Origin: Pseudogymnoascus verrucosus
Lineage: Eukaryota
DNA: 64,000 bases
NCBI GenBank assembly: GCA_001662655.1
Contig: KV460288.1
Strand: one strand, 5' to 3'
The position numbers and the translations under genes are program-made. Below are positions 14,012 to 34,023 of the stretch, piece after piece. Under the pieces are notes generated by a model, which saw only the letters and a program-made list of their open reading frames with translations, was not told the origin of the DNA and made no database searches. The stretch's first letter is position 1. The number at the start of each line of letters is the position of its first letter.

Positions 14012-15118
14012 CAGTGTTGCCCGAATACCGCTCTGAGTACTACTCGAGGATGCTCGAGTAGAGTACTCAAAATTGAAGCTCGAGTACTGGTATTCGAATA
14101 CCAGTACTCGAATACCTCGAGTAGTACTCGAGCTTTAAATAGATATTGATATAATACTGTTTTTTTTTACTATTCTAACTCTCATTATCTACATCGTCGC
14201 CGCTGTCTTCGTCGTCGCCTTGTGATAAAACACCCTAATTCCGTAGGCAGAGTAGATATCTAAGTGTAGAAGGTGATAATCGGTTCCATTTCTTTGTAAT
14301 AATATCACCACTAACACTAAATACTCGTTCCGAGTCCGCTGAGGTAGATAGAATAGCTACATAATCCTTCGCAATAGAACTAATTAATGGATATTAGTAT
14401 TACTTACTCTGCTAATACTTAAGAATAATTGCCAGAACGATTGGCTTTTAATAAGGCGTAATGGTAGGTTATTTGATACTATGAAAGAGAGAACAAGCTC
14501 TCTATATTTCAACGAACTTAGTGCGTTAATAGGTGCTTAGCGGGGCTAGAAGAAAGCAGAAGTAGAAGTAGAGGGCGTTGATGAGCTTCGAATTAAGGAT
14601 ATTTCATATTCTGCATGCACCGATGGGTGCTGCTTCTTAAGATGCTTCTATAGATTGCTCGTTGTCTGGTTCTTTAGTGGCTGGCTCTACGTATATCTAT
14701 AATTGATTTAACGGCATTAGTATTGAATTCTAGTAGGTACTATATCTAATAAAGTACAGTAGAATAGTCCTTTAGAAAAGAGGATTAAAGTAGAATTAGG
14801 TAATTGAAGCCGTAGAGGCATATGCGGCATCGAAATAAGGGGCATTAGAATAAGGGGCGGCAGCTCTAAAGTATCAGACTGATACTCAGCCGGCACCGGC
14901 GACAGCGAAGAGTCACTCATTACAGGAAGTAATACAGAAGCTTCAATTATTATCTATTCTACGATCTATATTACCCCTCTTTGCCAAGGGCGGCAGTATT
15001 CGAGTATTCGGAGAACTACTCGGCGAATACTCGAGTACTCGAAAATATCACCGAGTAGAGTAGTACTCGGGGTATTCGGCGAGTAGTACTCACGGCGAGT
15101 ACTACTCGGGCAACACTG
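14012..15118 (-). mobile_element. Non-autonomous, internally deleted, RIP-mutated hAT DNA transposon (1107 bp)
   Basis: 13-bp perfect TIR CAGTGTTGCCCGA and 8-bp TSD CTGCGGTG (14004-14011 and 15119-15126). GAGTA(G/C)TACTCG subterminal repeats. Minus-strand remnants of a BED finger (TTSNL*KHLKKQHP) and the hAT dimerisation domain (YPLISSIAKDYVAILSTSADSERVFS...NRLSPSTL). Confidence 0.92.
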
Positions 15119-21282: not shown

Positions 21283-21495
21283 GGTCGAAGCAGGAGTACA
21301 GCACAACGTAGAATCAAACCAAGTAAAAATCCGGAGGGGGCGGTCGTCTATCCATTTATATCTCTAGCTGGCGGCTGAGCCGGGCAGCCTACAAATTTAT
21401 AATATAGATCAACCAGTGTTGAGGAGTCTGACAGTGCCAATCTCAGTGGAGCTGACTCCAGGGTGTCTTCCTTCTTGCCTACATTTTTTCTCCAC

Positions 21496-21575
21496 AGGAA
21501 AACGGGGCCGGAACTTATAGACAACGCCGTGTCGATAAGTTCCGCGATATCTATAAGTTCCGGGCCCGTTTTCCT
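21496..21575. promoter_or_regulatory. 26-bp inverted repeat containing three CGGAACTTAT motifs; candidate Zn2Cys6 binding array upstream of the ABC transporter
   Basis: AGGAAAACGGGGCCGGAACTTATAGA (21496-21521) pairs with TCTATAAGTTCCGGGCCCGTTTTCCT (21550-21575) with 1 mismatch. A third copy, ATAAGTTCCG, lies at 21535-21544. Confidence 0.65.
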
Positions 21576-21698
21576 ATGAGTAACAATGGATATCTCACTC
21601 CATACTTTCCTAAATTAGATACCACCTTCAAAACGGGAATCTCAGGGCCAATATCAAACCAATGGAAGCCGATCCAACGGAGGCGATAATCCTTGGTT

Positions 21699-21794: not shown

Positions 21795-22026
21795 AGATCG
21801 AGGAGCCGCTAACTTTTAAGGCATTTTTGGGGGGTGGACGCCCAAGGGCCCGCCACCTTGGCAACGGCACCGAGGACCCCGAGGCCCCGGCGTGAGGTTG
21901 TAGGGGCATGCACCCATGACAAAATGTCGTCAAGCAACAGCAAGCCTCAGGGGGATTTTCTGCGAGCCACTCACGGGCATTTGATATAGGAGTCCCTGCC
22001 GTTGAATTATGAATTGTGTTGGTTTT

Positions 22027-22301
22027 GTTAAGGAGGAGCGGTTTGGTGACTTGCGACTATCCACGCTAATCGTCGTATCCAACTTCTCGCTCTGCTCAAG
22101 GTTGGATACGACGATTACTCCGTAACGAGTAAACTCGACCCGTACAGTAGGAATTGGTAGCACTAGCACCTTCAGTGCTGGCGACTATGCAAATTGGTGC
22201 TTCGATATCGTTACAGCCTCGTAAAGCCAGCCAATCGCGAAATTCGCCATTTTATATCCAATCAATTTATGGAGGTTAGCTATAATGTCATATAGTTAAG
22301 A
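22027..22301 (+). repeat. Copy A of a dispersed, structured non-coding element (putative ncRNA or non-autonomous element)
   Basis: Core 22125-22301 aligns with 33541-33724 (about 85% identity by hand count). Perfect 17-bp hairpin at 22067-22083/22101-22117. Confidence 0.75.
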
Positions 22302-22522
22302 CAAAATCAGGTCGCTAAAACGGCACAAGTCAATTATCGTAGTCATACGTACGGCTAGAATATTGTTGTTTCGGACTGTCTAACTGGACAGAAATACCAG
22401 TCAAAGTTCTAAAAGATGCCTTACCTGTATATTTCCATTTTGAGGCTAGAAAGCCATAGTTTATACTAACTATCAAAATCTGATGACGCGTTGGGTTCTA
22501 TAACCTGTATACCATTACACAC

Positions 22523-25004
22523 CTAATTATTATGATCGAGATTCTCCTGTTTAGCTTTGCTAATAGCGCACTTTCCCAGCCTTCTTAACTCCGCAATGAA
22601 CTCATCTACAAGATTAATATGGAAGAGCTCATCCATGGTGGGTTGACGGATAGGCATTCCCTTAATCAAATCAGGTGCCTTGCTGATCAACTCTAAATCT
22701 TGAGCTGCCTGCGGGTCTAGAGGGTTTAGAAGGATATTGCAAAATATTGTCAATAGAGCCGACATTGGATAGAAAAGAATCATCCTAGGTAGGTTTTAGC
22801 GACTGTAACAACAGTAAAGGTCTATCAGAAGTTGAGAATGGATGCTTGAAACAACGTACCAGAAACAATCATCTTCGAGAACATGCTGCGCCGTATGTAG
22901 GTATAAAATCGATGATCGACTCGCTTCTACTGCTAATTCGAGACTTGAACTCACTCCTTCCATGACACTACTCTGACCATCAGCCCAGGCCTTGCATCGA
23001 CCGCTAGCTTCATGTATTATAGCCACGCAGTGATGGTAGGCCAGCCGCGATACCACAACTTGCATGTCCATCTCACTATCGGCCGGTGTGTCGTGTGAAA
23101 ATGATATAGTAGGCCTAAACCCCAGAGGTAATGATATTCTCCATCTCTCTAGGTCGTTGTCGAGTTCTCGTATGTCTCTTAAAAGTTCGGCATCGGATTT
23201 TTGTAGAGCTCGGGCTGAATAGAGAGAGTTGTACGCTCTTGATTTGATCATGGTCAAACGCAGATCGCCCGGGAATAAGGGGATATCACGAGAGGAAGAG
23301 TTGGAATATTGATTTGCGTATAGTCGATCTAAATAACCTGGAGGAAGGGTAAGGTCGCAGTGTTCGTCGTTCATCGATGGAGGCTGTCCAGTTCGCAGAG
23401 ATAGTTCCTTGTCAAACGTATAACAAAGCCAAAACAAATTCCGACGATGATTTTTGGTTCGGGATACAATTTCAGCGGAAGACGACGTTTGACTAGCAAT
23501 AGTTGGATCATGTAAAGTATGAGCACCCAGCATGAAGGCAAAACGAGCAGCTATCGAATTCATGACGGCTGCAGATTGCTGATTGCCACCAAAGAGTTGG
23601 TATATTGACTAGACACCAAAGGTTAGTCACAGGTGAGAGATAAAAGCAAAATATCTTAAACATTACTAAAAATCCCATGACGAAGAACAGAGTTTGCTTA
23701 GTAAGAGTGGTGTTATCTTCAGAGAGCAAGGACATCATCGGACAGAGAAAAACATGAGAATATGAAAGCAAGGTTACTAACTAGCATTATAGCTGTTTGC
23801 AGCAAGTCTGTTGTTATGTCTTGAAGAGCCGGGGCGGCTAAGCTTTGAGCCTTCCAAGCATATGCCTCGCTGTCTAGCGGTAGCCCTGTGCTACTTCCAC
23901 CACTATGAACGTTGAATATGGATACAAAGGCGAGAAATGCATAGATGCATGCCTTTGCGCTGGCATTCCCGGTAGGCTGCAAACTTCCTTGCTGGTAGGC
24001 AAGATTTATTGTATCTTTAAACAAGACTTTATCGATAGTAGGGAACACAAGGGACAAAATGTGTGAGCTGTATTCCAGGGCTAATTCTTCAACGATCTCT
24101 CTGTCAGGAAGGTGGACGCTGTCCTGCAGGAATTGCATGTCCCTAGGGACCGAGTTCATATGAAGGCTGCGCTGGTTCTGCCACGGTGGTCCAAATGCGT
24201 AGAATTTCTCTAACGCAACTGTCTGGCCTGTGCGTGATTTGATCCATTGCTGGCCCTCCGGCAAGAACAAGGGGATGCTATTGTACGAACTGATCTCTCT
24301 AAGCTTGAATCCAGCAAAATGCAGGTTTCCTAAAGATGAAGAGAATCTTGGCGTAATTCTTGTGCCAATTTTTGTAATGGCAGAGGGGCTTTTGTTGGTA
24401 TCGCGTCCTATAAACAAGTTAATTGCTGGCAAAGGAGAAAGATGGCGAGAACTTGAATTTTTTACTCCTCTCTTCCTTCCTTGGGAACAAAATTTGCAGA
24501 TAAAGAGTGGGCACGAATATAATTTTTAGAAAGAGAAAGAACAAGTATTAAAAAGTTATACGTACTAGATTCTTCAGACCCTAACTTTTGACTGAGGAGA
24601 TTCTCAATCCTTTCGATGCGTTCGGCCAACTCTGTGTCCCTACTATATCCACTAATTTAATATTTAGCAACACTGACTAGCAAAATCTAGATATAATGGA
24701 AGGGGAGGGCCATACTCTCGAATCTTTTTCTTCCGGTTTGCTGGAGGAATTCTGTCGAAAGTGCATTGAAGATTGTGATGCTTGCACCAGTTGCATTGCA
24801 GGGCGTTGGTGTCACATTTTATCTAAGGTACGTGGTTATTATTTGTAAATCTTCAGACCTTAATTACAAAAGGATATCCGCAAATCCTAGTACCTTTCTT
24901 TTATAACAAGAATCACACGCCTTTGCCTTAGCAGTGCGTTTACGACTCCGGCCTTCCGGCGTCTCGTCCTCGGAATTTGGAGTGGATGTCACTGGCGTGT
25001 CCAT
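22523..25004 (-). CDS. Zn2Cys6 transcription factor with a fungal-specific TF middle homology region; about 6 introns, internal boundaries approximate
   Basis: ATG at 25004. Spliced ACDSCYKRK|IKCDTNALQCNWCKHHNLQC zinc cluster (intron 24823-24893). RRNLFWLCYTFDKELSLRTGQPP Fungal_trans motif. Confidence 0.9.
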
Positions 25005-25462
25005 ACTAACTCAGTAGCATTGAACCTAGCAGATTAAAAAAGCACTACTGGTTTTGTTAATCGGCAGGCGCACCACAAAGAGATATGGTGATAAATCAGT
25101 GGAGTTAGGATCTCAAGGGTCTACAAAGTATATTTCGCTAACAAATCGGACCCAGTTATTTTTCAAACTGGCTTCGTCATATCACAAATCCCAAAATATC
25201 ACGTGAGCTTGATTAGGGGGTCACAGCTTTTTATTCGAAGCAGGAATATTTTGATCAGAGCTCATATAATTCATAGAATATGTCGACCTAGGTTTAACAA
25301 TGCACCCTCACAAAACGCCACCAAAAACAAGCGCGTGGAAGTAAGAAATATATTCCAAGAGTACCTGAGGCTTGACACCGTGTTTGGGCTACTACTAATG
25401 GAGATACTGAGTTTCCTGCCATAAAGGTCCTAGACAAGTCACCTAGCAGGTAGGACAGGCTC

Positions 25463-26842
25463 TCAGCAGGATGTCTTCCCAGCGTAGATGGCCAGCGCAG
25501 TATCGGAGGCCAGGGTGGCGGTGAACTGGCCGCTCGAATTCACCGTAACGTAGGTGTTGCTCTGGACATTGCAGTACGTCCCTGCAGACAGTGAAGTTTG
25601 GAATGTCTGGGTCACGGAACCCGATTCGTGGTTAATGGCGACGTATCCCTTGCTACCGCGTCCGAAACCGATGGCATTGTTGCCATTGTCCCACCAGTTT
25701 GTCAGCGCTTGGCCGCGGACGGCGTTGCGGAAGGCGACCATGCGCATGATCTCCGCCCAGGCGTGCTGACATTTCCACCCGTTCTGCCAGCAGGCGCTGA
25801 CAGCGCCGTTGTTAGGTGGTCCAGCGTCGTTGTCGGAGAATTCGTAGCCGGAGTGAACATCCGGGGCGCCGTAGGGGTGGGCGAGCATGAAGACGGAAGC
25901 CAGCGTGTACTTGGCATTGTCCTTGTAATTGAGAGTGGCACCGTTGCGCTCCGTGTCGTGGTTGTCGACGAAGACGGCGGCGACAGAGCTGCCCAAGTAG
26001 CCCCAGCCCTCCCCGAAGTTGCTTAGATAGGCGAGCTTCTCGCTGTTGAAGACACGCTTGAGGTCGTAGGCGTAGCGGAACTCCTGGACGTCGCCGTTTC
26101 CGGTGTATTCTGTGGGCTGGACGGCCTCCCCAGCGCCATAGATGACTTCCTGCTTCCAGTACGCGGCCGGGTTGGCCAGGCGGGACTTGATATTGGCAAG
26201 GTCTTCGGTTGCTATGTGCTTGGCGCCGTCGACGCGGAAGCCGTCGACGCCGAGACTGATCAGGTCGTTTATGTAGCCGGAGATAGCCTTGCGGGGGTAC
26301 TCCTCGTTGGTGTCCAGGTCGGACAGGCCGACAAGTTCGCAGTGCTGGACGTTGAAACGGTCAGCGTAGTTGGAGACCTGCGCGGTGCAGTCGTCGAAGT
26401 CGTAGGAGGAGTACAGGCCCGGGTAGTTGTACTTGGTGTACGACGTTCCACCGGTGCCAGTGCCACTGCCGGCGGACATGTGGTTAATGACGGTGTCGAC
26501 GACGACCTTGACGCCGGCTCCGTGGCAGGTATTAATCATGTTCTGGAAGGACGTGCGGTCGCCGAGGCGGCCGGCAATCTTGTACGACACAGGCTGGTAC
26601 GAGGTCCACCACTGCGCGCCCTGAATATGCTCGGCGGGCGGAGAGACCTGAACATATCCGTAGCCGGCGGGACCGATAGTGTTGGTGCACTCCTTGGCTA
26701 CGGAGTTAAAGTTCCACTCGAAAAGGACGGCAGTGACGTCCTTGGTGCCGGGCGGTGAGGCATTGACGACAGGAGGGGTCACGACCATGAGGCCCGCGGC
26801 TATCAGCGCCACGGCTGGAGCGAGGCCGGTCTTGCGTGCCAT
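25463..26842 (-). CDS. Secreted alpha-amylase, GH13 of actinobacterial type (GH13_32-like), intronless
   Basis: Signal peptide followed by [51 protein letters not shown] (nucleophile Asp), KQEVI (acid Glu) and FVDNHD. GC-rich codon usage. Confidence 0.95.
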
Positions 26843-27110
26843 GATGGAGGTTTCGGAGCCTTCGCGGAAACTTTTACACCAACAGTGTCAAGGGCTTAGG
26901 AGTACAGAGAACACACACAACAGAATAGAACAAACTTGGTAATATTGACTGCTGTATGATGAAGAGGAAGGAGAGAACATCTACCTATTATATGTCTTCG
27001 TTCGTACGAGATGGGACAATGTTCAATGGGAAATCCTAAGCACGAGCTTGCTACCTAGTAGTTAGGCCATCATTTAGAATCGTCCAAATCATCACATTTG
27101 ACCGAGCGAG

Positions 27111-27494
27111 AAATTTCCGCGGCTTGGAATTCATTTACTTGCGTTAGTGAGAATGATATTCACGCTGGGTCCCTTCCTCGTCTAGCGCGCTAAAAATCGA
27201 CCCCGCCATCTACATGTTACCTAGTTGGTCGGGCCGTTATCCACGTGCCGTACCCAGTCGGCCCGTTATCAGGTTTAAAGCTTCTAGTCGGTCCTTTGTT
27301 TATGTGCCTCATCGACAAACATTGCAAATCTTACAGGACCGTGCCTCGGCCCAGGCGGCTTGCTCTTAGAAAGTAGTGCCGCTAGTTTACCCCGTGGGGT
27401 TGCAGTGCGTTCTAGACGGAAGTGGTTCCTGCCTTATATGTCGCAGGCCCTGCGGCGGTATTAAGTTGGCACTAGAAAGCTAGACTATGCGGGG
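27111..27494 (-). promoter_or_regulatory. Candidate AmyR-type (CGGAAATTT) and CreA-type (SYGGRG) sites upstream of the amylase
   Basis: AAATTTCCG at 27111-27119. SYGGRG matches at 27201-27206, ~27394-27399 and 27489-27494. Repeated GTCGG(G/C)CCGTTATC at ~27228 and ~27257. Confidence 0.4.
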
Positions 27495-27932
27495 TGCAGG
27501 CTAGGATTACATGCTGTCTCGGCCGTTAATAAATCTTCGGCAAATCTTTATAGTTTGTACGTACGCCGCCTATTGGTGCAAACCCAAGAACATTGATGTG
27601 CCCCACGTTTTAAGTTTCACCCGCCATGCAAGCCTCCAACGCACCCCTCGCCCATTTTCCGGGGTGGTTGGGGAGGAAGTCATGCCAATCCGTCCAGTGT
27701 CTTCTTCCCCACGTTCATCACTAGCGTCCATAAGATCATCATGGCCTTCCCAATGCAGTGACCAAGAAGACGATGGCAATTCTAGCGGAGGGTTGCGTTT
27801 TGTATTTCTAATCACAGCTATAGGCTGAGAAAATACTTTCTTCGTGCTTAGATGAGCTAGCTGGTGCGTTTGTGCATATATTCTAACACTACTCTTACAG
27901 ATATTGAGCCATCTCGCCGAACCAGTCCGCAT

Positions 27933-29497
27933 CTATAGTGGCCAAGGTTTGCCTATTGGTGGTCTCTCTTCTACAGACGTAGAGTTACCCCTTCCGTAGG
28001 TGCCGATGTCGGCTTCCTCCTCGTGCACGTAGGCGTCATTGTTACTCCTTGACATTGAGCGGTCGCTCACTGTGTAGAGTCTCTCCCTCTGGTTGGCACT
28101 GTTCCTCCAAGACGTTGAGCGACCTCCCGCAGTGTAGAATCTCCCTCCCTGGTTCATGTATGTGGCATCGCTCCTCGTGGACGCTGAGCGGGTCCTGTCA
28201 TCGCCTGACCGTCCATAACGGGCAGTTTCTTCCCCTAGATAGTGTCTCTGTGTTGGCTGCATGTATGCATCATCATCACTCCCTGTGTACGAGAAATCCT
28301 CATCCGATGAAGGTGTATAGTCGTTCTTCCGTGCCCGGCTCAAGTTATCCATGTCGTAACTACGCTCAGCTCCTTCACTAGAAGGCATATCATTTATCGG
28401 GGAATTGGCGACTGTCTCATTAGGAGCTGCCCACCGAGTCTTTCTGCGCTCCTTCCTGTCTTCGGGCTCAAAATACCGGTGTATGACCGACCCTATGATC
28501 GCAAAAAGAGCAGCCACCCAAGGCCCCCACTGCCCAACGGCATTAGGGTTCTCTTCAACAGGGATGTTTCGCATCGACCACTCGATCATAATCACAAGTG
28601 GTACCCACACGACTGACCCGATGCTAACACATACCCCTATCAATGCATATCCCTCCTTATCGGATGCGGGGCCATACCCAGATCGCATTTGCGGCTCGTC
28701 GCTTGCCGCCTCATATCGCTCATAAAACGTCTTGTCTAGACTCATAAACGATAAATAATCCCAATCGCTGCCATCAAGCCGGAGAAAATAGTACAAATTG
28801 TTAGGCCCCAATCACCAAGCGCGCCGTTCACAGGAGCCCCCCAGATAACCGTAGCCGCCTCTTGAGGCTTCAGTACGGATCCGCGTGTGAGAAAGCAGTC
28901 ATATATGCATTCGAGGTTTTGCCTTCCATTAAGTTGCGCAAGGCCTGTGAGTAGGGTCTTGTCTGGCAAGAAGCATGCCACCTCTGCATTGCTATTCTGT
29001 GGGGGACCACCTGCGTCGTTGACGAGAAATAAGGCTAGAGTTCCGGTGATGATCATAGTGATAAACCAGAACTTAACGACTGCCACCCCTGCCAGGTTCT
29101 TACGCAATGTCGACGAGAAGCAAATGAAAGCTAGGAACATGGTCACGCTCACCATGGCTATTAAAGCAATGCTTAGTGAGTCGAGGTCCAGGATGGGTGG
29201 GTTCCGCCAGTGAGTTGCAAAGATGATAAAGATGTGGATCGCTGTCGTGGCGCTGAAGGTCATGGCTGAGGCAAGGGCGCCGATGACAAGCCACTCAAAA
29301 TGCTGCCCGCAGACGGCAAAGATGAGAGATACGTAGAAGAGTACCCGAGGGAGGACGCCGTACTGTCCGCTCATGGGATACACGCAAGAGACTTGATCGT
29401 CGACAGATGTGTCGTTAGAAGGTGCGTAGGCTGAGGCGTGAGTAACGAGGAGGGCAATAGCGCACAAGACGAACCGGAAGAAGCGATGAGAAAACAT
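27933..29497 (-). pseudogene. Multi-pass membrane protein with signal peptide, split by a 1-nt frameshift near 28745 (pseudogene or sequence error)
   Basis: ORF 28742-29497 (CVYPMSGQYGVLPRVLFY, TM helices) and ORF 27933-28811 (EENPNAVGQWGPWVAA) overlap in different frames, with no usable intron signals between them. Confidence 0.65.
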
Positions 29498-31270
29498 GTT
29501 GAAGATGATAAAGCGTGCAGTAGTATGGAGCTATCTGACGAGGATTCTAAAGACTAGACTGCCCATAATAATGAAGGTATAATAAAGAGTGGAAATCAGA
29601 GTCGCGCAAGGTTAGAAGCCGTCGGGAGTGCCTATTTGGAGTATAGTGAGTACTGAGAACGCTGACTATTTGGTGCCCTGGAGTAGCGAGTAAGCAGAAA
29701 GAATGTAACAGGGAACTGCAGGTGTATCGAAAAGTTACGGAAGAGAAGAAGGAGACGGGAGAGAAAAAAAGAAACGGGAATATATAAGGCTATCAACTCA
29801 GCCAGGCACGGAGTGTCGGTGGAGATATTTCCGTTGAGCTTGTATGTACGACTCTCAGGGGGCAAGGCGCAGCAAATGAGCAGTTGCACAGCCAGGCACC
29901 GGCAGCCATAGGTAAGACACGGCAGTAGCTAGGCATTTGTGAGGCAGGGAAAAAGGGGGGGAGCCGATTTGCCAATGTCTCTGGCGCTGAGGTTGAAGCT
30001 ATGACAATAGCTGTCACTTCGAGATGTACTTGGCAACAAACCAATACGCCCCATGGTAATATGAAAGACCCCAAAATCGGAAATCTTATACCTCCCCCGT
30101 CTTTGGTTTAACAGCGCTTCGCCCTGTCTGTCCCCTAGGCGCTTCAGAGCGCCCTGGCAGGCATACATACCAGTAACCATATAAACAGGTCGACTAAATT
30201 TGGCTGCTTATTATCCTATTCCTGGTACCTTACATGCTTGTTGTAGATATAGTTGAGCCGCGCGCAGCTGGTCTTTCTTGGCTGTTTCGTCAACCTATCT
30301 AGAAGCTTTCTCTAGCCACGCACGTCAACACGGCAGACAGTCTTGAATTTCCCGCGGAGCCTTGCCACCCTGAAGTATCATAGGAGCCAATAGGTTACCA
30401 CGTACTAATCTCTGATGGTTCAGGCCCTGCGGTTCCTTCCGCGCCGCGTCCCGTCAAGCGACTAATAATTACACCGCACATATACAATGTGAGTTTCCCA
30501 TGGATTCCCACAGTGACTTGAGTTGGCGCCGGGCGTCGGTAGGATTGCAGCATCGACAGTGTCTAAATATAATCGTGAGAATGTGCATGCTATATTGATC
30601 TAGCTATGATGCCACTCGATATACTCTGAGTTCTAGCTCTTGGGCTAGTCTCAGAGGAAGCCCATCCTCGTCGGCAGAGCTGATCTCCAGTGATCGCCCC
30701 CAGCATTGGCGCCAAGTTGTGTGGGCTGCGGAGATACGTACGTTCTAGCTCAATATCTCGCCGCTGCTGCGACGTCTCTGGGCGAAGAGGTGCTTGAGCA
30801 GCATATAGGTGACAAGACGCGAAATGAAGGAAGGTCCTGGGATTTTGAGTTTCGTTAAATTAGGCTGGGGCCCGACGCCACACGTCTGTGGCGTCACTCA
30901 TCAGCTCTTTGCCAACCCCTTCATCTAGATAATATATCCGGTTATCCCCAACACACGGGTAATTATGCTGCATGTGACTCTGGCTCTCTGCCTCCCATGA
31001 CTATGGCAGCCTGGGGCTGGTTTGCAACAGGCTCATACGGCTTCGTTGCTAACGTGAGTAATAATTTTGACAAACCTGCAAGTCCTCATCCAGTCTACTC
31101 ATACAGTATACTCCGAACCAGTTCATTCCACTCCCACATCTATACCGCCTTTTATTTTATTTTCAGCTCAGCACTACGCACCTTCCCTACCTATTCAACT
31201 TGCTACCCACCAAGCTGTTGAGTGGCGGTCTCTTCCGGCATCCATTCACGACGCACTATGCACTGCGAAG

Positions 31271-32803
31271 ATGGCATTTAACTCTCTGCCAAACGAAATA
31301 CTCGCCCAAATATGTTCTTGTTTGTGTTTTCACTGCCGAAACCCCGGAATGTTCCCAAACTCAAACACTAAAGAGTCACGCATGGACAAGATTACGCTGG
31401 CGCGTCTGTGCCGAGCGTCAAAGATGCTATGCTCCTTCGCGCAGCCTGTCCTATTTCACTACTATGCGACTGGCAATCTCGCTCGATCGGTCCGCACCGA
31501 TTTTCAGGAGTATAATCGCAGTTGGGATGTCGAATACTGGAATTTTGAAGACGATAAACTCCCAGCCTTCCTTCGCTCTCTCATAACCCGTCCTGACTTG
31601 GCGCTTTGCGTTAAATCGCTACAGCTTCAGGGCTTTGGGGATCAAGATCTTTGCAGCCCTGAGCTCATGCGGCTTCTTTTTAATGCTGGTAACGCACTTA
31701 ATTTTAAGCCCCCAGCTGGCTGGCGCTGGAAGGGTTGGGCTGAAGAGCCTGAGGACTGGTCTGATTATGAGCCGCCTACCAACCGCACTTATATCGTATC
31801 TTATGAGAATTTCCACCCTGACTTCCTTGATTTCCACGATTGGCTTAGGGCACTAGCAATCGCTCTTACACCACGCACTGAAATGCTAATGTATATTTGC
31901 GAAGGGCTTTCCGAATTGGATTCGTTCAAGGAGACCAAAACGGTGCTACCAGCGCTCAAGACACTCGCACTGAGGGGCGCTAATGATGAAGACTATTTTT
32001 TGTCTAGCATACACCCCCTCCTTACCGTTGCGCCGAACCTAGAGACATTATATGCGCTAGATTGCAATGGCGTAAAAAATAGTCCGTCTAGATATTCTTT
32101 AGTGGCTAAAGGGGATATGTGGATAGAAAACCTTGCTGTTAACAAGGTGCATAAGTTAGTGCTTGATGAGATTCCTCCAGCAGTATTTGAGAAGTTGATA
32201 GAGCGATTTGTTCAATTGGAAGATCTTGAGTACTACATCTATAGTTGGGCGAACTATCCTAATATTATGCAAGCTATTTCTCCGACGAAAGGGAGGCTTA
32301 GGAGGCTCTGTTTTGGATATTTACCACCACCTGCACCCGGCCACTACGAGAGCAGGCTACCAGACAACGACTATGCAACCATCACATCATTGCAGGAATT
32401 CACTCAGCTCGAGGAACTCGTTATTGACCAGGCACTGCTCTACCGCAAATCTGATGGTCCTAAAGGCACAATACTAGTGACACTGCTACCCTCTATTCGA
32501 AGAATACATCTCACGTATGTATACAAGAGCATGTACGAAGATTTGATGAGCCTCGCCCATGAAGCACCAAGAAGCTTTCCTAATCTTCGAAGCCTAAAGA
32601 TCGGTCTCTCGAGTCCAATACCTCCCAACAGAATAGCGGAGATTGAGAAAATGAAAGCAGTGGAATCTACCTTTGTCAGTATGGGCGTGCATGTGTCATG
32701 GGCGGAGGATTTGAAGGGGCCGTTTTTGTACACGGCGATTCCGGGCGGAGCTCCCGGCTTGACGGTAACCCATGTGCCTGCCTCCTCGGGAGTATGGGAG
32801 TAA
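31271..32803 (+). CDS. F-box-like / leucine-rich-repeat protein, intronless
   Basis: N-terminal FNSLPNEILAQIC...LARLCRASKMLCSFAQPVLF, then LRR-like segments (LPALKTLAL, APNLETLY, FTQLEELVI, FPNLRSLKI). Confidence 0.8.
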   Translation: MAFNSLPNEILAQICSCLCFHCRNPGMFPNSNTKESRMDKITLARLCRASKMLCSFAQPVLFHYYATGNLARSVRTDFQEYNRSWDVEYWNFEDDKLPAFLRSLITRPDLALCVKSLQLQGFGDQDLCSPELMRLLFNAGNALNFKPPAGWRWKGWAEEPEDWSDYEPPTNRTYIVSYENFHPDFLDFHDWLRALAIALTPRTEMLMYICEGLSELDSFKETKTVLPALKTLALRGANDEDYFLSSIHPLLTVAPNLETLYALDCNGVKNSPSRYSLVAKGDMWIENLAVNKVHKLVLDEIPPAVFEKLIERFVQLEDLEYYIYSWANYPNIMQAISPTKGRLRRLCFGYLPPPAPGHYESRLPDNDYATITSLQEFTQLEELVIDQALLYRKSDGPKGTILVTLLPSIRRIHLTYVYKSMYEDLMSLAHEAPRSFPNLRSLKIGLSSPIPPNRIAEIEKMKAVESTFVSMGVHVSWAEDLKGPFLYTAIPGGAPGLTVTHVPASSGVWE

Positions 32804-33387
32804 TACGAATGTGTTCAAAATGGGTTCTGGTTATGAATAAATTGAAAGGTTGATGGGAGTTTTGAGTTTTAATTATAAAACAAAACCTGCAACTACACCT
32901 ACTTCGACGACTATAAAAATGCTCATTACTCGCTACATTCACGAGAACAGAGACTTCTTCACTTCCGCTGCTGATCAATAATCTCCCTCGCTGCTAATTG
33001 CCGCTTTCGAACATCATCAGTGCTATGATGGCCTTCACCACAATCCTTTTCCGTAGTCGAGTAGAATGTTTCATGAACATCCTAAATTAGCATATTTTGC
33101 AAAGGTAATACGGGCGGAAAGACGTTACTAAGAAAGCTTAACTAGCGAAGCTCCTCAGGGTCCAAAGGCATGAGTGGTTACCTGAAGAGCGAAGGGGTTA
33201 GTTGAGGAAATTAAGCCATTGACACTTGGATTAAGCCATCGCTAACTGAAATACCCATGAGTCGCTTTAAGTGAATCGGTTCAGAAAAAAACAAGCCAGA
33301 ATTAACAGCCAGCCGTAGTAAACAGTCACTCTATTAGGTCGTATGTGAATGTTTTTCGATTGTGGTGAAATATAAGAAGTGATAGAG

Positions 33388-33724
33388 GTTAAATGGAGGA
33401 CAGATCCTGGGACTTGTCATTTCCGCTATGTATAATTTCTACGTTTATTAATCTGGAGACTCCAATCGTCGGAACCGACCCTAAGGCTTACCTGAGTGAA
33501 ACGAAAGCTTGGTTTCGATGATCATCATCTACTGAGTGAGACGAGTGAACTCGACCGGTGCCATAAGAATCGGTAGCGCTAGCAACCTAAGCGCTGACGC
33601 TGACGGCTATGCAAATTGGCTCTTTGATATCGTTACCAGCCTCGTAAAACCAGCCAATCGCAAAATCTACCATTTTATATCCAATCAATTTACCAGGGTT
33701 AGCTGTAATGTCATATAGTTAAGA
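33388..33724 (+). repeat. Copy B of the dispersed structured non-coding element
   Basis: Same orientation as copy A. Stems at 33465-33478/33509-33522, 33575-33580/33590-33595 and 33699-33707/33714-33722. Confidence 0.75.
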
Positions 33725-34023
33725 ATTCTACATACGGAGATAATACTGTTGCGCCTATATAATGCCCCCTCACCGCCTTTTGGCAGTACCCCCGCACTCC
33801 GTTATTGGGCCAAGCCACGCTCTTCTCCACCTTCCCGTCGCTTGGTCGGAGCCGAGGCATCCTCGGAGTTGGGGACTGGGGTAATGGCTAGGCTTTTAAA
33901 GGCTTCTATATCTCCAATTCAACTTGTTTATACTTTCTTCTCTCATCTGTTATAGAATTACTTACCAGAGTCGTCCTTTACCTCGCCATAACACACTCCC
34001 AATCCCATCTTCCAACCATTACA

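Follow-up and report, generated by a model that had tools for sequence, protein, structure and literature searches.

In the 64-kb stretch of DNA analysed here (the window), two diverged repeats, copies A and B, are in our reading old insertions of a short, non-autonomous, SINE-like repeat family confined to a clade of filamentous fungi, to which we give a probability of roughly 0.55. Contigs of related fungi, where the same two ends recur at unrelated loci, show the apparent mobile unit to be a 177-nt core. The repeat is real and fairly ordinary, a small mobile repeat with many copies in related fungi. An earlier note on this DNA had taken it for a two-copy element, either a discrete structured ncRNA or ribozyme of ~270-340 nt or, as the last of three alternatives, an RNA-mobilised SINE-like family. 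It is this last alternative that fits best, given dispersed copies with sharp ends, one of them with a 9-nt duplication.

Results

A pair of diverged repeats

Comparison of the window with itself by blastn aligns copies A and B (Table 1) at 81.5% over 184 columns (E 5.7e-46). With the 7 gap columns left out, 150 of 177 positions agree (84.7%), close to the ~85% that had been counted by hand, and the blastn comparison and gene positions likewise bear out that both copies are intergenic and on the same strand (+), 11.4 kb apart. Copy B carries a 6-nt tandem duplication of GCTGAC at 33593-33604, and CCAGCCAATCG and TCCAATCA do not differ between the copies. No third copy was found within the 64 kb, either in the self-comparison or by nhmmer with a profile of both copies.

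Copy A is flanked by the start of a PDR-type ABC transporter gene (ATG 21282, - strand) and the stop of a Fungal_trans gene (22523, - strand), and copy B by an ORF at 31058-32803 and a zinc-dehydrogenase gene. The core begins ACGAGTAAAC and finishes TATAGTTAAGA, where the similarity between the copies stops abruptly. After TTAAGA the flank differs at a minimum of five sites, at least: window A, window B, X10 22301, X10 33724 and X12 33724 (X10, X11 and X12 being the three relatives introduced below). Read directly, ACGAGTAAAC shows no inverted match to TATAGTTAAGA, so that the core has no terminal inverted repeats; it also has no TG..CA ends and no poly(A) or simple-repeat tail.

A weaker similarity had been thought to extend upstream to ~22027 and ~33388. 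What stands of this is a shared palindrome half-site, matching at 11 of 14 positions; a 27-29-nt stretch at 22027/33388 outperforms shuffles in the original reader's narrow frame alone, where 16 of 500 shuffles are as good, against 240 of 500 in a wide frame. The sequence 21900-22066 is found at the orthologous locus of X10.

Table 1. Features of the two repeat copies, in window coordinates
Feature	Position	Strand	Basis
Core repeat, copy A, 177 nt	22125..22301	+	blastn to copy B; X10 contig ends
Core repeat, copy B, 184 nt	33541..33724	+	blastn to copy A; relatives' depth, loose ends
Weakly similar 5' extension, membership in element uncertain	22027..22066 (copy B 33388-33464)	+	local alignment
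Stem 1, copy A, 47-nt palindrome (17 perfect pairs) plus one flanking TA copy	22067..22115	.	inverted repeat, fold, indel
Stem 1, copy B, 14-bp stem, 3 G-U pairs	33465..33522	+	pair check, folding
5'-terminal hairpin CGAG-NNNN-CTCG	22126..22137 (copy B 33542-33553)	+	4 invariant pairs, loop A/G
Stem 2, AGCACT/AGTGCT (copy B AGCGCT/AGCGCT)	22159..22179 (copy B 33575-33595)	+	one A-U to G-C double change
3'-terminal 9-bp stem-loop then GA, at sharp 3' edge	22276..22299 (copy B 33699-33722)	+	G-U pairs, folding

Copies in related fungi

The comparison set consisted of contigs of three related fungi (X10, X11 and X12), including per-position depth. In these contigs the core is found again elsewhere, bounded by the same sharp ends: one relative has ~6 copies, and another (X12) has ~12-fold depth across the 3' ~70 nt. 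The two-copy description does not survive this. At 22271, X10 has four contigs and a depth of 136.5 against ~33 per single copy; two of its contigs (records 2 and 3, of 15,422 and 36,612 nt) align over no more than 22126-22301 and 22127-22289, respectively, and then diverge, and another matches from 33671 to 33724. At 33669, X12 has a depth of 2338.8 against ~195 for single-copy DNA, with at least six contigs. Loose ends at 33724 occur in both X10 and X12.

Duplications had been proposed as something to look for around other copies, and one was found: in X10 record 2, a 9-nt direct duplication, TTATCATTT, abuts both ends of the copy (22126 and 22301), one letter off on the 5' side. The chance of such a duplication is ~3e-5 over 9 registers, a figure that concerns one relative's copy and assumes that both loose ends come from one contig. 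It is seen in one of the three copies with both flanks readable, and none is visible by reading at the core ends of window copies A and B. For a longer element, TTCTACGT (33437) and TTCTACAT (33726) were considered as a duplication and rejected: they match at 7 of 8 positions, with ~0.3 such matches expected by chance (hand estimate), and around copy A there is nothing comparable. A joint in X12 that runs from 22145 to 33641 was also considered as a deletion of the interval between the copies, which X12 contigs covering 22240-29342 and 30874 onwards at ~195-fold contradict; we read it as a third copy that aligns partly to A and partly to B, with 21 letters on the short side.

Hairpins and folding

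The stems hold up as originally described, with no pair lost: in the four listed stems all 33 pairs are standard in both copies (66 of 66 cells), and of the changed pairs three have a substitution on each side and three a single one giving G-U. The alignment of stem 2 is ambiguous owing to the 6-nt duplication in copy B. The 3'-terminal stem (TTAGCTRTA/TATAGTTAA) contains one G-U pair in copy A and two in copy B, and folds at -6.3 kcal/mol as + strand RNA in both copies (z -3.0 and -2.5), compared with -2.8 and 0 as - strand RNA.

Stem 1 of copy A is an inverted repeat, 22067-22083/22101-22117, 100% complementary and with TA on both sides (-28.8 kcal/mol, z -8.2). In copy B its 30-nt loop is unrelated to that of copy A, and the stem folds at -20.7 kcal/mol as + RNA (z -2.9) against -13.8 as - RNA (z +0.25), the DNA folding no better than shuffles. 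The terminal hairpin and this copy B stem both fold as + strand RNA and not as - strand RNA or DNA.

Nearly all of the structural signal sits in stem 1. With it, the consensus fold of the two-sequence alignment reaches z -5.09 on the + strand, with none of 300 column shuffles as good; for the core alone, again with two sequences, z is -1.45 and 23 of 300 column-shuffled alignments do as well, and the fold of copy B taken in full does not stand out from shuffles (z -0.29). A swap control equals the observed covariation value in 60 of 500 trials, and two sequences give no covariation power. If the same substitutions are placed at random, zero broken pairs have P 0.012 for the core stems and 0.006 for stem 1, values that apply to stems chosen after both copies had been seen. 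The claim that G-U-compatible changes reflect selection on a + strand RNA is kept in part: the non-Watson-Crick pairs in the stems are solely G-U, on the + strand, but without stem 1 the fold is at z -1.45. The pattern fits, with weak support, a putative + strand RNA intermediate with a 3'-terminal stem-loop.

The stem 1 of copy A is missing at the orthologous site in all three relatives compared, bypassed by joints from 22066 to 22116 in X10 and X11 and from 22044 to 22116 in X12 (23 homologous letters between), so that it behaves as an optional presence/absence module. It may be a foldback mini-element inserted beside the core, or belong to a longer variant as a part prone to deletion; in either case it would be dispensable. 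The shared palindrome beside both cores is an observation that counts against the core alone as the mobile unit: since A and B have a homologous upstream palindrome, a core that moved by itself would call for a longer variant or two targeted insertions.

Searches for known families

Rfam 15 gave no match at gathering score in the 64 kb, in agreement with the earlier note, which had recognised no known family. Below threshold, two miRNA models matched the palindrome by chance, at 18.1 and 14.9 bits against cut-offs of 79 and 90 (E 0.67 and 2.3). Neither copy resembles a tRNA, 5S or SRP RNA in Rfam up to E 10, ARAGORN found no tRNA genes, and snoRNA boxes and ribozymes were seen neither by eye nor as Rfam matches. 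Compared by eye with the consensus boxes, no A or B box is convincing: copy A's closest approach to a B box, GCTTCGATATC, has decayed in copy B. A scan of 21 long ORFs across the window turned up no transposase.

A metagenome scan with the 22-mer CCATTTTATATCCAATCAATTT returned no matches, this pattern being strict (one relative's copy is without a C there). With an 18-mer, at least 118 loci were returned, and the matches listed include no family member, the best nhmmer score among them being 13.8 bits and confined to the 18-mer. Six motifs of the element, 13-16 nt long, had no match in the full text of papers, a search that lies outside Repbase and Dfam. No run recorded as RNA contains the stretch, and in X9, a run presumed to be RNA, neither copy has a contig, which does not bear on expression either way.

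Discussion

We propose that the core moves via a + strand RNA that would be copied back by a reverse transcriptase acting in trans, in a SINE-like manner by target-primed reverse transcription. The 3'-terminal stem-loop and the GA that follows it may be the part recognised by this putative enzyme, and such recognition would account for the sharp 3' edge, the excess of the 3' ~70 nt and the G-U-only departures on the + strand. On this view it would be selection acting on RNA from source copies that preserved the pairs, rather than any role at loci A and B. In LINE/SINE pairs of the stringent type, the reverse transcriptase recognises a 3' stem-loop. The core resembles these pairs in its conserved 3' stem-loop at a sharp edge and in the 3' part being the most represented, and differs from them in having no terminal short repeats.

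Several features count against the SINE reading. In classical SINEs the head comes from a tRNA, 5S or 7SL RNA, and its internal Pol III promoter (A and B boxes) is a defining feature. Such a head is absent from the core, as is a poly(A) or simple-repeat tail, and a TTTT run lies on the + strand within its most conserved block. Neither a partner LINE nor a transcript was seen. The nearest comparison is with AfuSINE2 and AfuSINE3 of Aspergillus fumigatus, which are 140-493 bp long with flanking direct duplications of 4-14 bp (PMC5063351). Like these, the core is short, low in copy number and dispersed in the gene-rich DNA of a filamentous ascomycete, with a short flanking duplication in one copy (PMC5063351). 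The AfuSINEs described there have a tRNA- or 5S-related head and Pol III boxes, some with a trinucleotide-repeat or LINE-like tail (PMC5063351); the core, in contrast, has no tRNA or 5S likeness and no repeat tail, and has small hairpins at both ends.

Among the alternatives, a DNA-transposon derivative is unlikely, and the others are less likely still. Here the core would be MITE-like (Mutator- or Merlin-like, with 9-bp duplications and decayed inverted ends) and stem 1 a Tc1/mariner-type foldback with TA duplication. A 9-nt duplication is within the Mutator range. The core ends have no inverted similarity, however, no transposase was found among the 21 long ORFs, and the hairpins decay by G-U on one strand alone, which DNA pairing would not tolerate. 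The mimp elements of Fusarium are ~200 bp long. Unlike fungal MITEs, stem 1 is only 47 nt and is seen in two examples, both beside the same core, itself without inverted ends; as in fungal MITEs such as mimp (PMC5579170), stem 1 of copy A looks like a minimal foldback, with perfect inverted arms (17 nt), TA flanks and presence/absence differences between species. We also hold it rather doubtful that the core represents a novel type of fungal retroposon (no tRNA, 5S or 7SL head, hairpin-bounded, with G-U-only drift) accompanied by a still-mobile foldback palindrome homing to its 5' flank, or else a real multi-copy ncRNA gene. A functional family of structured ncRNA genes making a discrete + strand RNA, the copies in relatives being paralogues or retro-pseudogenes, is improbable. 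It would be consistent with the fully paired stems, their three double and three single G-U changes, the P values for random placement, the restriction of G-U to the + strand and the conservation of copy B in X11. Against it stand the post hoc choice of stems, the swap control with two sequences, the poor folds of the core and of the whole of copy B, the absence of an Rfam family, and the target-site duplication and variable flanks in relatives. With a multi-copy core that has its own ends, and with stem 1 lost from the copy A orthologue in all three relatives, a discrete structured-RNA gene is not supported.

Just as improbable is a host cis-regulatory module, a conserved block kept, whatever its origin, for driving neighbouring genes. 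The block contains what we take to be two CCAAT boxes (+ strand) and a TATAAAA (- strand), CCAGCCAATCG and TCCAATCA are identical in both copies, and ~300 nt separate the end of copy B from the downstream start of the dehydrogenase gene. The copy B region differs from X11 at 6 of 403 nt, compared with 120 of 3,221 nt for the other seven listed pieces (P = 0.007), which hints at host-level constraint such as a promoter and also counts against the SINE reading. Copy A, however, is oriented away from every gene on the + strand, at ~840-1020 nt from the ATG of the ABC transporter, and the copies in relatives have unrelated flanking DNA, with a target-site duplication. An LTR pair, solo LTRs or a Helitron end would explain direct repeats 11.4 kb apart with a TATA-like motif and a hairpin at one end, and is very improbable. 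LTR retrotransposons have TG..CA ends, 4-6-bp duplications and gag/pol between paired LTRs, and Helitrons have TC..CTRR ends and make no target duplication. Here the interval consists of ordinary host genes on both strands and is collinear in X10; its scanned ORFs include Fungal_trans and alpha-amylase but no gag, integrase or reverse transcriptase. Neither copy has TG..CA ends, and 18% divergence and a 9-nt duplication do not fit an LTR pair. TC..CTRR ends are lacking on the + strand, and one copy does have a duplication; we rejected these candidates on their ends, duplication length and interval. The least credible alternative, a decayed protein-coding exon, was rejected as well. A 60-codon open frame crosses core B on the + strand, but the same frame is broken in copy A, the 35 substitutions fall 14/11/10 by codon phase with no periodicity, and Pfam found no family in the element in six-frame reading. 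A phmmer search of 1.84 billion proteins gave only four matches (E 1e-7 to 7e-4), all unrelated bacterial-type repeat proteins (cadherin, hemopexin) hit through a repeated 28-residue match.

For scans of this kind, the SINE-like reading carries a caution: two diverged copies of a mobile element can mimic the covariation of an RNA gene, because source copies have constraints of their own and palindromes are self-complementary from birth. The repeat family is also a small marker of genome dynamics, its presence or absence differing between species. The repeat sits in the promoters of a drug-efflux-type ABC transporter gene and a dehydrogenase gene, and the CCAAT-type motifs that it presumably carries make co-option possible. 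Should the core prove to be a retroposon with hairpin boundaries and no head, the known range of fungal SINEs, so far a narrow one, would become broader.

Two diverged copies of a non-coding repeat

Comparison of the window with itself returned one strong non-trivial match, between copies A and B, which share a strand and are 81.5% identical over 184 alignment columns (E 5.7e-46). Without gap columns, 150 of 177 positions are identical (84.7%), in agreement with the ~85% of the earlier note. Both copies are intergenic, their likeness breaks off abruptly past ...TATAGTTAAGA in each, and a profile built from the two found no third copy within the 64 kb. The weaker similarity claimed upstream stands in part: a palindrome half-site upstream of the core (the 177-nt repeat unit) is common to both copies at 11 of 14 positions, while the likeness over a 27-29-nt stretch is marginal, being equalled by 16/500 shuffles in the frame originally used and by 240/500 in a wider one. 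The window comes from a filamentous fungus; by Pfam, its genes comprise a PDR/CDR-type ABC transporter, a Fungal_trans domain protein, an alpha-amylase, DUF1776, actin and others; no transposase or reverse transcriptase was found among the 21 long ORFs scanned.

Features of the window and their coordinates
Feature	Coordinates	Description
Copy A	22125-22301	
Copy B	33541-33724	
Stem 1 of copy A	22067-22115	49 nt: 47-nt palindrome plus one TA
Hairpin B (stem 1 of copy B)	33465-33522	
Tandem GCTGAC, copy B	33593-33604	6-nt duplication, missing from copy A
Second short stretch	21947-22001	just upstream of copy A; multi-copy in relatives; 22001 covered by 3 X10 and 2 X12 contigs; loose ends at 21946/21947, 21986, 21997
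Inverted repeat	21493-21578	35-nt arms, 89% complementary, composed of recurring TATAAGTTCCG units; precedes the PDR-type ABC transporter ATG by about 210-300 nt; candidate transcription-factor binding palindrome
Spaced inverted repeats	14029-15097	18 nt (89%), 1033 nt between; GAGTACTACTCG sub-repeats grouped at both ends; candidate non-autonomous DNA transposon
AT-rich stretch	1-2600	GC 0.32; many AGGTACCT-type palindromes; tandem duplications; looks like degraded repeat DNA
Large tandem duplication	1354-2015	331 nt x2
Large tandem duplication	2010-2419	204 nt x2

The earlier note recognised no signature of the RNA families it named, and Rfam likewise gave no match at gathering score in the whole window; at E up to 10, the palindrome drew merely two chance matches to miRNA models. 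ARAGORN found no tRNA, and no Pol III-type head was found for the core, nor a transcript or a partner element. A coding origin was rejected: the 35 A/B substitutions fall 14/11/10 over the codon phases, Pfam assigns no family to the 60-codon open frame across core B, and against 1.84 billion proteins this frame met nothing beyond four weak matches, to unrelated tandem-repeat proteins via a short repeated segment.

The core recurs in related genomes

Contigs of four public sequencing runs of related organisms (X9 to X12) were aligned to 21900-33950 at a likeness of at least 80%. In X10, the likeness of two contigs (15,422 and 36,612 nt long) is confined to 22126-22301 and 22127-22289; position 22271 is spanned by four contigs of this run and position 33669 by two. 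X12 reaches a depth of 2338.8 at 33669, where single-copy DNA stands at about 195. Judging by the mean depth over the 393-nt bin around this position, the majority of the additional copies match the 3' ~70 nt alone. Beyond the 3' end of the core the sequence is different in at least five places. The search for target-site duplications around other copies, suggested in the earlier note, yielded one: TTATCATTT occurs in X10 immediately beyond 22126 and again beyond 22301, in two loose ends assigned by assumption to a single contig, the sole listed piece with exactly these limits. No duplication was found at the core's ends around either window copy; these copies may derive from a longer variant including the palindrome, which would explain this. 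The matches listed from metagenome scans held no family member. Between copies A and B, X12 contigs carry rearrangement joints (29342 to 33414, and 33488 back to 30874) and leave 29538-30743 uncovered.

An optional stem carries nearly all of the structural signal

The four stems described earlier are exactly so: 33 pairs, none lost in either copy, and 66/66 cells holding standard pairs. Between copies, three pairs differ at both positions and another three at one, giving G-U; the 3' arm of stem 2 aligns ambiguously because of the tandem duplication in copy B. Random placement of the observed substitutions leaves zero broken pairs with P 0.012 (core stems) and P 0.006 (stem 1), for stems picked after seeing both copies, and a swap control, which has no power with two sequences, reached the observed value in 60/500 cases. 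As + strand RNA, hairpin B (-20.7 kcal/mol) and the 3'-terminal hairpin (-6.3 kcal/mol) are stable, and neither is stable as - strand RNA or as DNA, a real asymmetry.

The unbroken pairing and its G-U changes on the + strand favour a new structured ncRNA or ribozyme, as first proposed; several other results weigh against it. Tested by alifold against column-shuffled alignments, the extended alignment reaches z -5.09 for the + strand, a value equalled by 0/300 shuffles, and -2.0 for the - strand; for the core alone the values are -1.45 (23/300) and -0.67, so that nearly the whole signal lies in stem 1. Copy A reaches z -5.0 because of its perfect palindrome; whole copy B folds no better than shuffles (z -0.29). 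Stem 1 of copy A is itself optional, being missing in all three relatives with contigs over the site (X9 has none there): X10 and X11 skip it at the orthologous locus (joint 22066 to 22116, 2 letters shared), as does X12 (joint 22044 to 22116, 23 homologous letters between). Either a TA-targeting foldback landed next to the core or a palindrome already present in the ancestor was lost by slippage between its flanking TAs, and under neither origin is stem 1 a conserved component of a single RNA. In X11, copy B is present with its hairpin and well conserved, showing 6 differences over 403 nt, compared with 120 over 3,221 nt in the remaining seven listed pieces (P 0.007). With stem 1 optional and the core recurring elsewhere with the same ends, a new structured ncRNA or ribozyme is unlikely. 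Every stem mismatch is G-U on the + strand.

A probable short interspersed repeat

We therefore consider the core a mobile element: it is short and non-coding, its ends are fixed and its flanks unrelated, related species carry it several times per genome, and one copy is bordered by a duplication. It is likely to represent a lineage-restricted short interspersed repeat, a mobile repeat family as such having a probability of about 0.85. Its closest described counterparts are low-copy fungal SINEs, among them AfuSINE2 and AfuSINE3, whose defining feature is a tRNA or 5S head (PMC5063351). The core is like these in size and copy number and, in the one X10 copy, in having a short duplication at its flanks; unlike them, it has no tRNA or 5S head, and we thus call it SINE-like without assigning it to any SINE family already described. 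Full-text search of the literature for six of its sequence motifs found no match.

Because its ends are neither inverted nor LTR-type, and the A-B interval consists of host genes collinear in X10, a SINE-like retroposon mobilised in trans fits best, although retroposition specifically is put at slightly under even odds. The + strand is likely the RNA strand of the element, as the 3' tail, stem-loop included, is the part best kept and most represented, and pairing drifts through G-U on that strand only (about five independent events, all + strand-compatible; roughly P 0.03 by our own estimate).
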